Below are positions 246 through 702 of a stretch of 5,741 bases of DNA, piece after piece. Numbering within the stretch: position 1 is the stretch's first letter; each line of letters starts with the position of its first letter. Position numbers and translations under genes: made by a program. This stretch comes from a virus. The notes beneath the pieces are model-generated. The model worked only from the letters and a program-made list of their open reading frames with translations, was not told the DNA's origin and did no database searches. The stretch is from positions 1 through 5,741 of the IMG/VR virus record IMGVR_UViG_3300045988_016256; one strand, written 5' to 3'.

Positions 246-261
246 TTTTGGAATTTGTCAA
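234..261 (-). promoter_or_regulatory. Consensus sigma70/sigmaA-type promoter with an extended -10 element.
   Basis: The minus strand reads CTC-TTGACA-AATTCCAAAAATG-TGG-TATAAT-ATAATCA.
- The -35 is TTGACA (261..256), followed by a 16-nt spacer.
- The TG extension is at 242..241.
- The -10 is TATAAT (239..234).
- The predicted +1 is near A227.

All 14 consensus positions match. Confidence 0.65.
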
Positions 262-287
262 GAGTTTTTTGAAACTTTTTATTCGAG

Positions 288-327
288 GTCATGCGGTAGG
301 CGCGGTGCGCCGTGTGAAGAGCATGAC
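288..327. repeat. Nested inverted repeat (hairpin within a hairpin) in a GC-rich island of the non-coding region.
   Basis: The outer 7-bp stem pairs GTCATGC (288..294) with GCATGAC (321..327). The inner 5-bp stem pairs GGCGC (299..303) with GCGCC (307..311) around a GGT loop. The flanks are AT-rich. Confidence 0.6.
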
Positions 328-367
328 GTGACTTTCCGGCTGACTGCCGCACTGCCTTTAATTCTGA

Positions 368-543
368 TTTTCCACACTTTCAACATTTTCAACAGGTTTT
401 CCACGAAAAGTTGCACAAATGGTTTTGTGCATATTGCTATACTTTCAACAATTCAACAAGTTATCCACAAAAGTATCAACATCAAAATAATCCAGAAAAT
501 ATCGTTCCAAGGATAAAAATTCATGGTATTCAACATTTCAACA
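368..543. repeat. Iteron-like direct repeat array: three doublets of TTCAACA plus TTTTCCAC/TCCAC repeats.
   Basis: On the + strand:
- TTCAACA starts at 379 and 388, at 444 and 452, and at 529 and 537. These six perfect copies are paired 8-9 nt apart.
- A degenerate doublet TCAACA/TCAAAA lies at 476..487.
- CTTTCAACA occurs at 377 and 442.
- TTTTCCAC occurs at 368 and 397, and TCCAC at 464.
- CAACAAGTTA occurs at 454 and 563. Confidence 0.8.
412..431. repeat. 8-bp inverted repeat lying between iteron doublets 1 and 2.
   Basis: TGCACAAA (412..419) pairs with TTTGTGCA (424..431) around the loop TGGT (420..423). The pairing is perfect. Confidence 0.7.
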
Positions 544-569
544 CTCCCTACTATTACGACTACAACAAG

Positions 570-592
570 TTAATAATAAATAATAATAATAT
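570..592. repeat. A/T-only tract built from (TAA)n units.
   Basis: TTAATAATAAATAATAATAATAT is 23 consecutive A/T positions. It consists of two 10-nt units, TAATAATAAA and TAATAATAAT, and directly abuts the GC palindrome at 593. Confidence 0.85.
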
Positions 593-632
593 CATGCACG
601 TGCGTGCGCGATTACGTGCGCGCGCGTGCATG
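593..632. repeat. 40-nt GC-rich alternating purine-pyrimidine palindrome (hairpin or cruciform, Z-DNA-prone).
   Basis: - Sequence: CATGCACGTGCGTGCGCG-ATTA-CGTGCGCGCGCGTGCATG.
- The stem has 18 positions, of which 15 are Watson-Crick pairs.
- On the + strand the other 3 are G.T pairs (601/624, 605/620, 608/617). On the - strand they become A.C mismatches.
- Purine/pyrimidine alternation is unbroken over 593..610 and 613..635.
- It also reads as a 16-nt-period direct repeat, ACGTGCGTGCGCG (598..610) and ACGTGCGCGCGCG (614..626). Confidence 0.85.
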
Positions 633-640
633 TCAATATG

Positions 641-690
641 GAATAAAATACTCAGCCAAGTAGCTTTACTTGATAGTTACTTGGCTGAGT
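641..690 (-). terminator. Putative intrinsic terminator downstream of VP4.
   Basis: It starts 13 nt after the VP4 stop (TGA 705..703). A perfect 12-bp stem pairs 651..662 with 678..689 (CUCAGCCAAGUA / UACUUGGCUGAG on the mRNA strand). The mRNA strand then reads UAUUUUAUUCC. A small 5-bp hairpin, GACAC-TTTG-GTGTC (691..704), precedes it. Confidence 0.6.
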
Positions 691-702
691 GACACCAAAG
701 TG

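Follow-up and report, generated by a model that had tools for sequence, protein, structure and literature searches.

The interval 246..702 of this gokushovirus genome is best read, with a probability of roughly 0.6, as a combination of a DnaA unwinding cassette, a hairpin element linked to the VP4 gene and a promoter. Its central part, 368..592, has the sequence layout of the basal unwinding system (BUS) of a bacterial oriC, running from DnaA boxes through a 4-nt spacer and DnaA-trios to an AT tract, and the order and orientation of its elements are those of the published system as defined in PMC8287927. This suggests that rolling-circle phages of this kind also recruit the host initiator DnaA. 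In the literature searched, no paper was found that links gokushoviruses or Microviridae with DnaA or a DnaA box.

The window, i.e., the whole 5,741-nt stretch analysed, represents a circular genome of ~5,686 nt (1..55 repeat 5687..5741), whose large genes all lie on the minus strand: VP4/Rep at 703..1722, VP2 at 1722..2561 and VP1 at 2607..4328. The first-pass annotation had described 246..702 as unusually long and non-coding, and this description holds: the interval is 457 nt, or 8.0% of the genome; the coding strand stays open for at most 57 codons; the plus-strand ORFs of 113 and 93 aa are absent from relatives; comparison with relatives yielded no conserved coding frame; and independent assemblies show the same gap in their gene calls. 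Indels among the relatives' regions are mostly of 1–2 nt. Scans of the region for tRNAs and Rfam families returned no tRNA and no family above its gathering score, one weak match, tpke11 (E = 0.03), being far under that score and situated on the GC palindrome. That annotation had also proposed an alignment of relatives and a check for chimerism. The former shows the region to be 60–96% identical in 42 GenBank gokushovirus records, with a covarying hairpin stem, and conserved in more than 120 gut gokushovirus genomes; as for the latter, two independent assemblies from the human gut match at 100% identity over the region, which is therefore not a chimera. PHROGs and Pfam searches of the neighbouring small ORFs left ORF73 without a family and gave no candidate binder of the palindrome, and exact-protein matches, found only on ~5.8-kb contigs, gave no evidence of integration or of a host. 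Some gokushoviruses integrate at dif; inspection by eye for a XerCD/dif-like site found no convincing dif-like 28-mer.

What these observations bear out is a conserved non-coding region for replication or control, in which genuine repeats, an AT tract and hairpins follow a set order. All six of the elements listed by the first-pass annotation exist where it had placed them, namely the promoter (234..261), the nested GC hairpin (288..327, which folds as claimed), the repeat array (368..543) with its inverted repeat (412..431), the A/T tract (570..592), the GC alternating palindrome (593..632, with 18 continuous pairs) and the hairpin beside VP4 (651..689); their interpretation is what changes. 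The features are as follows.

261..234, minus strand: sigma-70-type promoter, TTGACA-16-TGnTATAAT, 12/12 with extended -10, directed toward ORF73 and away from the module
288..367, plus strand: accessory element of ~80 nt, with the nested GC hairpin 288..327 and a small CGGC/GCCG hairpin
368..405, plus strand: DnaA-box cluster 1, TTTTCCACA (368), CTTTCAACA (377), TTTTCAACA (386), TTTTCCACG (397)
410..433, no strand assigned: variable palindrome GTTGCACAAATGGTTTTGTGCATA between the box clusters, 8-bp stem (inverted repeat 412..431), z = -3.4
442..480, plus strand: DnaA-box cluster 2, CTTTCAACA (442), AATTCAACA (450), TTATCCACA (461), GTATCAACA (472)
527..543, plus strand: trio-proximal overlapping box pair, TATTCAACA / ATTTCAACA, 8-nt period
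544..547, plus strand: C-rich spacer CTCC, 4 nt, separating the box pair from the trios
548..569, plus strand: DnaA-trio block, CTA CTA TTA CGA CTA CAA CAA G
570..592, no strand assigned: A/T-only tract of 23 nt, candidate DNA unwinding element
586..639 (core 593..632), plus strand: alternating (C/T)G palindrome, 18-bp hairpin, z = -4.3
650..690, minus strand: hairpin just after VP4, 16-nt arms, z = -7.1, sense loop TATCAAG at 675..669
689..705, minus strand: GTGTCAC at 695..689 (sense) and inverted TGACAC at 705..700, candidate Rep-binding repeats

The repeats of 368..543 are, as their wording indicates, one-directional DnaA boxes: TTATCCACA, TTTTCCACA and many TTWTCAACA variants. The 7-mer TTCAACA occurs six times in the array versus 1.1 expected, a count reached in only 1 of 200 shuffles, and the boxes run 5.0 forward to 0.5 reverse (8.1 to 0.25 for the 7-mers). 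The boxes of cluster 1 all face the trios and are conserved across relatives, while cluster 2, with the perfect consensus TTATCCACA at 461, is among the best conserved blocks of the alignment. The proximal pair, with the family consensus TTTTCAAC-TTTTCCACA, provides the second, overlapping and less conserved box that characterizes the BUS, as in Anaerovibrio, Cytobacillus and many other origins. The published rule calls for a box adjoining the trios with at most two mismatches to TTATCCACA or to the species' own consensus, and this genome narrowly misses it because its proximal boxes, TATTCAACA and ATTTCAACA, have three mismatches each to TTATCCACA; they have two each to TTATCNACA, a documented DnaA-box consensus in a Clostridia-class bacterium (PMC1888806). 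Among the homologues, 14 of 18 obey the rule, as does the family consensus TTTTCCACA, and perfect or relaxed-consensus boxes lie farther upstream in this genome, at 461 and 368. Most of the boxes are of the CAACA variant, with a predicted affinity for the relevant DnaA.

Between the two clusters stands a palindrome that varies across genomes. A stem of at least 6 bp occurs at its position in 72 of 120 modules, in families such as TGCACAAA (22), GAAAACT (19) and TTCGTCA(T) (13), among others; other genomes have different palindromes, or none, at the position of 410..433. A DnaA box in the 412..431 stem acting as an ABC-primosome site was considered and rejected, since elsewhere this position is occupied by unrelated palindromes or by none.

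The remainder of the cassette follows the same plan. In the BUS, the spacer measures 0–16 nt, with ~4 nt after the second box; here it is CTCC, and a length of 4 nt recurs in 108 of 120 bacterial origins and 69 of 84 scorable phage modules. The trio block displays 3'-GAT-5' repeats on its bottom strand and the TnnT (DRE-like) strand on top. The BUS has at least three consecutive trios, each with a central A on the trio strand and preferably 3'-GAT-5', and the top-strand CTA CTA TTA (548..556) are the first three of B. subtilis; the first 10 nt of the block are identical to the B. subtilis oriC sequence CTACTATTACTTCTACTA (PMC10201434), 548..563 match the Anaerovibrio oriC at 16 of 16 positions, and the block also resembles C. 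difficile oriC2. It is nearly invariant among relatives, with CTA repeated three to six times, and the strict rule with at least three CTA trios holds in 14 of 18 GenBank homologues, a pattern that arose in 1 of 5,000 random genomes. The A/T tract is W-rich in all modules and takes the position of the AT-rich region of bacterial origins, such that, as in the BUS, the boxes face the trios and the AT-rich region lies beyond. The first three trios alone would not require the near-invariance of the string CTACAACAAGTTA, which could mark a second function.

A search pattern built from the phage block alone recovered at least 120 bacterial loci, versus ~11 expected by our own estimate. Among the 120 bacterial matches listed, 110 adjoin dnaA and/or dnaN and 87 are arranged as dnaA, match, dnaN, with the full order in these 87 being dnaA, boxes, trios, AT tract, dnaN. 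The phage and bacterial sets have in common the 4-nt spacer and the overlapping box pair: the Anaerovibrio chromosomal origin has the same overlapping pair, TTATCCAC-TTTTCCACA; TTCAACA is the proximal box in 12 of the 120 bacterial origins; and one chromosomal locus combines 12 CAACA boxes with junction strings as in the phage. The module is equivalent in layout to these chromosomal origins. The similarity is limited to ~40–75 nt, so homology by descent from bacterial origins is not established, and a recent capture of a host origin was rejected, as phage-to-bacterium similarity ends after that distance. A BUS usually lies beside dnaA; the microvirus genome has no dnaA, and thus the module is BUS-like in its predicted working but not a chromosomal oriC.

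Among microviruses, the module is independent of the genes in both conservation and orientation. Its core retains 76–91% nucleotide identity while VP4 falls to 46–59% protein identity; in one relative (L001), the module is 82% and VP4 48% identical, and in another (L005), the module is 69% and VP4 95% identical. The repeat words TTCAACA and TTCCACA are unchanged across VP4 proteins of 37–100% identity, whereas iterons, as which the first-pass annotation had read the array, should co-vary with their cognate Rep. Relative to the genes, the module runs antisense in 93 genomes and sense in 26, and three kinds of layout occur; a rolling-circle origin needs a fixed strand orientation and, with about a fifth of the modules inverted relative to VP4, this module is unlikely to be a strand-specific rolling-circle origin. 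The earlier proposal of a replication origin or control region thus survives as regards an ordered, conserved, non-coding region, but not as regards the array being the Rep iterons of a rolling-circle origin. The same layout recurs in a further, distant clade of microviruses (~4.7 kb, VP4 ~29% identical), with 4–5 perfect TTATCCACA boxes, the box pair, ATGC, (CTA)5-6 and an AT tract.

The orientation of the module varies, whereas that of the hairpin beyond VP4 is fixed, from which we infer that the module acts on double-stranded DNA. The hairpin 650..690 is present in 93 of 123 genomes, in the gene-sense orientation in 93 of 93, immediately past the VP4 stop. Compensatory changes affect 7 of its 12 stem pairs (with changes on both sides), 89.5% of stem cells are paired versus 17–45% in slid controls, and the loop TATCAAG is invariant in 40 diverse sequences. 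GTGTCAC forms its 5' flank, with GTGTCA invariant, and the TGACAC copy overlaps the VP4 stop codon; 27 of 93 genomes have a second exact GTGTCA no more than 40 nt away (16 as direct and 11 as inverted copies), versus ~0.016 expected per genome. A compensatory stem with an invariant loop, and a fixed orientation beside rep with short repeats, are the marks of a nick-site hairpin. Always being in gene orientation, 650..705 is the better candidate for the VP4 origin than the DnaA module, and the hairpin itself is a candidate VP4 nick site or other strand-specific origin. What had been labelled a terminator is accordingly real as a hairpin but revised in function, having the anatomy of a rolling-circle origin; it is possibly also a weak terminator, as ATTTTATT follows the stem here. 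An intrinsic terminator consists of a GC-rich stem with a U-run directly behind it, its loop being free to vary. The terminator scan omitted the hairpin owing to its 9-nt loop, the limit of the tool being 8, and in other clades no clear T-run follows the hairpin, with the loop sequence retained. To our knowledge, the loop TATCAAG(T/A)A matches no nick-site consensus, and a literature search on gokushovirus hairpins and origins found only hairpins of other microvirus clades.

A promoter of at least 11/12 occurs at the same position and in the same direction in 69 of 121 related genomes, 50 of these with TG. The 80-nt element, whose nested GC hairpin has a z of about -2, is nearly invariant in 33 genomes from three VP4 clades, and in 24 of 25 genomes it shares the orientation of the module and precedes the trios by ~265 nt; searches with it gave no plasmid match, and the phage matches were confined to Microviridae (gokushoviruses). 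The (YG)n palindrome folds with -21.8 kcal/mol on the plus strand versus -14.9 on the minus strand and is a hairpin on the plus strand only, because its imperfections are G.T wobbles there. It is found in 80 of 120 modules, with the top strand more stable in 74 of 79 and TG:CA at 417:99. The DnaA model leaves this strand bias and the 80-nt element unaccounted for.

The following sequence of events can be proposed. On the double-stranded replicative form, 368..592 would serve as a DnaA unwinding cassette of the oriC type, which in some genomes may extend to the (YG)n palindrome 593..632 and to the block 288..367. About ten same-facing DnaA boxes would recruit host DnaA-ATP, whose oligomer, starting at the pair 527..543, would grow past the 4-nt spacer, reach the trios 548..568 (bottom strand) and open up the A/T tract 570..592. 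Most probably, the cassette would provide an entry point for the host helicase-loading machinery, so that the replicative form would depend on the host initiator for its replication or amplification and for the timing of these; transcription from the strong divergent promoter (261..234) would leave negative supercoils behind RNA polymerase and favour opening. The separate segment 650..705, comprising the GTGTCA repeats and the TATCAAG-loop hairpin, would be a strand-specific, VP4-linked element, likely the rolling-circle (+)-strand origin or nick site or, alternatively, a complementary-strand priming signal. As phiX174-type microviruses are not known to need DnaA for replication, such a use of DnaA has no known precedent. 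A stronger version, in which the cassette is a working DnaA-dependent origin supporting bidirectional theta replication of the replicative form in step with the host cell cycle, thereby yielding minichromosome-like episomes in dividing Firmicutes, with a switch to VP4-driven rolling circle from the hairpin for the production of virions, is tentative and rather doubtful; were it true, such episomal persistence would amount to a non-integrative lysogeny or carrier state.

Among the other explanations, a rather unlikely one is that the boxes form a sink or regulator—a decoy origin titrating DnaA and helicase loaders, or a site through which DnaA regulates the adjacent promoter—with no phage DNA synthesis started. 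Ten or more boxes per genome multiplied by many replicative forms would make a large sink, a strong promoter lies beside the array in 69 of 121 genomes, and box clusters serve titration or regulation at bacterial datA and dnaA promoter regions. Yet boxes alone would suffice for these purposes, whereas it is the unwinding geometry of pair, spacer, trios and AT tract that is most tightly conserved; moreover, over 100 nt separate the promoter from the closest box, and the 80-nt element lies in this gap. That DnaA assists nicking, opening the AT tract for VP4 (HUH) to nick within the invariant CAACAAG/TTA-W tract, seems distinctly improbable. HUH nucleases do require single-stranded substrates, this tract is loosely like the phiX174 origin, CAACTTG/ATATTAATAAC, and the near-invariance of CTACAACAAGTTA past the requirement of the first three trios speaks in its favour; but the module's orientation to the genes is not constant, so that the other strand would be nicked and packaged wherever it is inverted, CAACAAGTTA also occurs at 454..463 as a plain box-box junction within the array, and the gene-locked hairpin is a better candidate for a nick site.

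The reading of the array as VP4 (Rep) iterons, with 246..702 as a whole constituting a rolling-circle origin, retains little probability. Direct repeats, an AT tract and hairpins adjoining a Rep gene are the origin grammar known in circoviruses, geminiviruses and rolling-circle plasmids; against this weigh the constancy of the repeat words described above, the inversion or relocation of the module relative to VP4 in ~27 genomes, the occurrence of the same pattern at dnaA-dnaN origins of bacteria without VP4, and the presence of a separate, VP4-locked hairpin with its own flanking repeats. Binding of another host regulator, e.g., Spo0A, coupling the phage to sporulation as in phi29, is very improbable: the commonest 7-mer, TTCAACA, is one base from the 0A box, TGTCGAA (opposite strand TTCGACA), Firmicutes are the probable hosts, and Spo0A and DnaA boxes overlap in B. 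subtilis oriC, but no exact 0A box was found, the variable positions are those that DnaA boxes tolerate (CCACA, CAACA, TCACA), the trio linkage and bacterial dnaA-dnaN matches favour DnaA, and the second clade has perfect DnaA consensus boxes. Hardly any weight attaches, likewise, to a small protein or structured RNA with incidental repeats, which could appeal to the plus-strand frames of 113 and 93 codons, the hypothetical proteins annotated nearby in some GenBank records and the weak tpke11 match; the frames are not conserved and suffer frequent 1–2-nt indels, the Rfam match has the shortcomings noted above, and conservation is concentrated in short oriented 9-mers.

If the DnaA unwinding cassette functions as proposed, phage replication would be tied to the master initiator of the host and possibly to its cell cycle, which would offer a concrete way for the phage to be carried over long periods without integrating. 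Microviruses count among the most abundant and persistent human-gut phages, their hosts being mostly uncultured. The box dialect and trio block together could provide a short signature for host prediction against bacterial origins, and the module would be a natural, minimal and portable unwinding unit for models of origin opening. With the likely VP4 origin moved to a defined 55-nt hairpin element, the gokushovirus origin is now directly testable.

A parallel may be struck with several known systems. The hairpin 650..690 is like rolling-circle origins in its invariant loop, covarying stem, short repeats and fixed orientation beside Rep; in circoviruses, geminiviruses and pT181-type plasmids, the double-strand origins consist of iterons and a nick-site hairpin. 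The phiX174 origin, a 30-bp site inside gene A (the Rep gene), differs in having no hairpin and in lying within the Rep gene, and cleavage at 650..690 is a prediction. Intergenic hairpins near Rep, with identical loops and compensatory stem changes, are described in other microvirus clades (PMC9865509); in comparison to these and to the phiX174/G4 priming signals, the present hairpin involves other sequences and other clades.

The cassette has its closest counterpart in the BUS, as at B. subtilis incC, C. difficile oriC2 and the dnaA-dnaN intergenic region of many phyla, with which it shares the order of box pair, 4-nt spacer, at least three 3'-GAT-5' trios and AT tract, the further boxes upstream, and a nearly identical trio sequence (CTACTATTAC...). 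Unlike these, it resides in a 5.7-kb ssDNA rolling-circle phage, away from dnaA, and its boxes are mostly of the TTWTCAACA variant; the invariant CAACAAGTTA, the (YG)n palindrome and the 80-nt element are phage-only additions, and its activity is predicted. DnaA boxes are also found at the origins of the P1 (oriR), F, pSC101, RK2 and R6K plasmids, and DnaA has effects at lambda; these origins similarly borrow the host initiator via DnaA boxes beside an AT-rich region, but they need their own Rep on iterons with a few auxiliary DnaA boxes, whereas in the phage module no such initiator or iterons are evident, the chromosomal box-trio geometry is complete and the phage's own initiator is a HUH nickase. 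Finally, datA and DARS are non-origin DnaA-box clusters that modulate DnaA availability; they are without the box-spacer-trio-AT geometry, which in the phage module is conserved.

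The window comprises a complete circular gokushovirus genome of ~5,686 nt, with positions 1..55 repeated at 5687..5741, whose large genes all lie on the minus strand. In GenBank, it is closest to "Gokushovirus WZ-2015a" and to other Microviridae from faeces of human, monkey and pig. The non-coding region 246..702, for which the first-pass annotation had raised the possibility of a chimera, is genuine, because the same genome with an identical copy of it was found in two independent human-gut assemblies (contigs of ~5.8 kb). Moreover, 42 gokushovirus records of GenBank retain it at 60–96% nucleotide identity; one of these (MT135258) has no other part in common with the window genome at the megablast level. 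All the elements listed by that annotation are present, as judged by promoter match, folding z-scores, repeat count and base composition:

Features of the non-coding region and the large genes
261..234, minus strand: promoter, 12/12 match, extended -10
288..327: nested GC hairpin, folds with z ~ -2
412..431: inverted repeat, folds with z = -3.4
570..592: A/T tract, 23 nt of nothing but A/T
593..632: alternating-GC palindrome, folds with z = -4.3
650..690: hairpin, folds with z = -7.1
703..1722, minus strand: VP4/Rep, Pfam REP_ORF2-G2P
1722..2561, minus strand: VP2
2607..4328, minus strand: VP1, Phage_F
4325..4822, minus strand: VP3

The lack of a convincing ORF likewise holds: relatives differ mostly by indels of 1–2 nt and the reading frame is not conserved, which, together with the failure of any Rfam family or tRNA to fit the region in Rfam and tRNA scans, makes a coding or RNA product quite improbable.

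The repeats of this region (e.g., TTCAACA, with six copies against 1.1 expected) include TTATCCACA (461) and TTTTCCACA (368), both matching the DnaA-box consensus, while the commoner TTWTCAACA is one position off it. From an alignment of 18 homologous regions, and then 120 modules retrieved from IMG/VR by a 22-nt pattern, a family consensus emerges of TTTTCAAC-TTTTCCACA, a C-rich 4-nt spacer, CTA CTA CTA CNN CTA CAA CAA G, TTA and a W-rich tract, with 5–8 additional boxes upstream, nearly all of them pointing the same way (5.0 forward versus 0.5 reverse at ≤2 mismatches; 8.1 versus 0.25 for box 7-mers). The arrangement is that of the basal unwinding system (BUS) of bacterial oriC, in which one box, frequently overlapped by another, is separated by a spacer from three or more DnaA-trios; these have A in the middle, the most frequent being 3'-GAT-5' (PMC8287927); in the phages, an AT-rich region comes next after the trios. 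The window carries CTACTATTAC at 548..557; the B. subtilis trio/DRE top strand is CTACTATTACTTCTACTA (PMC10201434) and C. difficile oriC2 has CACCTACTACTATTACTACTATGA (PMC7561715). Of the 18 homologues, 14 conform to the published BUS rule with three or more CTA trios; the window, like its two nearest relatives, falls one mismatch short, in the proximal boxes. The strict pattern turned up in one of 5,000 Markov-1 random genomes.

A phage-block pattern satisfied by the window (TTYMACA-N2-6-CTACTAYTAC-NN-CTAC) returned at least 120 matches across 185,579 bacterial and archaeal species, one genome each, versus ~11 expected by our own estimate under uniform base composition. For 110 of the 120 matches listed, the sequence retrieved around the site includes dnaA and/or dnaN; 87 show the order dnaA, match, dnaN, and none of the 120 is a microvirus; for Lachnospira multipara, the flanking genes were confirmed by Pfam. 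The overlapping box pair of the phage recurs at the bacterial sites, as does its 4-nt spacer, in 108 of these 120, and the trio block of the Anaerovibrio lipolyticus site, TTATCCAC-TTTTCCACA-GGCC-CTACTATTACGACTAC-TATTTTTTATATAT, is identical to window 548..563 at 16/16 positions. As the similarity stops after ~40–75 nt, these matches support a shared functional architecture of phage module and bacterial origins, as opposed to recent capture of an origin. Further support comes from distant ~4.7-kb microviruses (L257, L258, L260 and L261 of IMG/VR; VP4 ~29% and VP1 ~36% identical to the window's), wherein the same architecture lies directly after VP4 as 4–5 perfect TTATCCACA boxes, ATTTCCAC-ATTTCCACA, ATGC, (CTA)5-6 and an AT tract. 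Across 2.9 million viral contigs, the chromosomal-type pattern is nearly absent outside those of microvirus size.

The main weakness of the DnaA reading is the A that replaces the consensus C in most phage boxes. Three observations reduce this concern. The box consensus of Thermoanaerobacter tengcongensis DnaA is TTATCNACA, and that protein binds an oligonucleotide with TGTTGATAA and TGTGGATAA (Pei et al., PMC1888806). TTCAACA serves as the trio-proximal box in 12 of the 120 bacterial origins listed. Finally, an origin-like chromosomal region (7180-7580 of DAOTTU010000130.1, a MAG labelled Anaerolineae), adjoining cdaA and ybbR and not dnaA within its contig, consists almost wholly of TTTTCAACA and TTATCAACA boxes: twelve are of the [T/A]TCAACA type and none has CCACA. 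It also has a canonical trio block and shares junction strings with the phage (e.g., CAACAGGTTTTC and CAACAAGTTATC). This lineage is a candidate for one whose DnaA is predicted to prefer CAACA, and might help to point to the phage host. As to that host, a gut Firmicute is probable, though at low confidence, to judge from promoters with an extended -10, a top strand of TnnT/DRE-like type, the clostridial dialect of the boxes and the Lachnospiraceae origins as best short matches.

The proposal that the repeats are iterons bound by VP4 is not borne out and must be held improbable: the BUS core (527..572) retains 76–91% nucleotide identity where VP4 proteins are only 46–59% identical. Relative to the window, MT135258.1 has a VP4 48% identical in protein with a module 82% identical in DNA, whereas KT264790.1 has 95% and 69%, respectively; this uncoupling suggests that the cassette has been exchanged between gokushovirus lineages by recombination. 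Furthermore, the orientation of the module relative to the genes is not fixed: 93 genomes have it antisense and 26 sense. Three arrangements occur, with the module after VP4 and facing the opposite way, after VP4 and facing the same way, or directly upstream of VP4. Having tolerated inversion, the module can be neither a strand-specific rolling-circle origin nor a signal recognised in the packaged single-stranded DNA, and must act on duplex DNA, as a DnaA module does. In L021, L025, L038 and ~20 further loci with a VP4 ~40% identical to the window's, the module abuts the VP4 start codon upstream in gene orientation; this clade is without the TATCAAG hairpin and has another GC-rich sequence (TGACGCGCACAGCGC...) after VP4.

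The part of the rolling-circle claim that survives would attach to that hairpin, the supposed terminator at 650..690. A search for further conserved non-coding words yielded its loop, CTATCAAGTAA, and a single copy of GTGTCA[C/G]-N10-14-TATCAAG directly follows the VP4 stop in 93 of 123 genomes. Loop and 5' GTGTCA are invariant; the stem is wholly different among VP4 clades (CAGCCAAGTAAC, TAGCCCAGTACC, TGGGCCTAATCC), with compensatory changes in 7 of 12 pairs and 89.5% of stem cells paired versus 17–45% with the partner slid. The element is gene-sense in 93/93 genomes, also where the DnaA module is inverted. In 27 of the 93, another GTGTCA, in direct or inverted orientation, is present no more than 40 nt away (~0.016 expected per genome), the window's overlapping the VP4 stop codon. 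This is the anatomy of a candidate Rep nick site. A complementary-strand priming signal, as suggested for conserved-loop hairpins of other microvirus clades (PMC9865509), is equally compatible with the strand specificity. In the window genome the hairpin, followed by ATTTTATT, may double as a terminator, a function that leaves the invariant loop unexplained.

At a probability of roughly 0.6, the cassette would recruit host DnaA, open the replicative form and admit the host replication machinery under initiator control, with the hairpin serving VP4. Least certain of all is the purpose that such opening would have in a rolling-circle phage; episomal maintenance coupled to the cell cycle is a tentative suggestion. 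That DnaA is bound for titration or regulation only seems unlikely, and DnaA-assisted VP4 nicking or an array for another regulator (e.g., Spo0A) each improbable.

A promoter directed away from the putative DnaA module (≥11/12 in 69 of 121 genomes, with TG in 50) is a conserved feature of its box-distal flank and might supply negative supercoils under the twin-domain model. The ATG (245..243) of ORF73, a small minus-strand ORF, falls between the -35 and -10 of the promoter 261..234 and is hence absent from any transcript starting near 227; no later in-frame ATG, GTG or TTG start exists. Either its start is misassigned (there is an AGG-N6-ATA), or an upstream transcript supplies it, or the promoter makes another product. 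Directly after ORF73, a perfect 10-bp hairpin, AAGAGGGCTTGTCAAGCCCTCTT (5679-5701, which on the circle is 5679..5686 joined to 1..15), bearing T-runs on either strand, resembles a bidirectional terminator that would set ORF73 apart as a one-gene unit; after it comes a second promoter-like site (5655..5628, 10/12). Between VP1 and VP2, a strong terminator-like coding-strand hairpin (2568-2592; 11 pairs, 8 GC, then ATTTTTATGG) may be an attenuator fixing the capsid-to-pilot-protein ratio.

Across 33 genomes from three VP4 clades (including MT135258.1, L020 and L053), a GC-rich block of ~80 nt with two hairpins (288..367) barely varies; it was found in gokushoviruses only and sits at a fixed ~265 nt from the trios in the module's orientation. 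The palindrome 410..433 is variable and often missing in relatives. In 80 of 120 modules, the AT tract is succeeded by a (C/T)G palindrome (window 586-639), more stable on its top strand in 74/79. Since each arm reads (C/T)G on the gene-antisense strand (CG 952, TG 417, CA 99), the hairpin forms well on that strand only, an asymmetry that neither Z-DNA, nor a protein site on duplex DNA, nor C-to-T deamination of the strand presumed to be packaged would lead one to expect. One idea is that it folds on the strand freed while DnaA holds the trio strand.

Elements of the box-trio-AT kind are well known from bacterial chromosomes, and DnaA boxes help several origins of plasmids and double-stranded-DNA phages. 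The searchable literature yielded no account of a complete chromosomal-type module conserved, as here, in more than 120 microviruses with single-stranded DNA and in a second clade.
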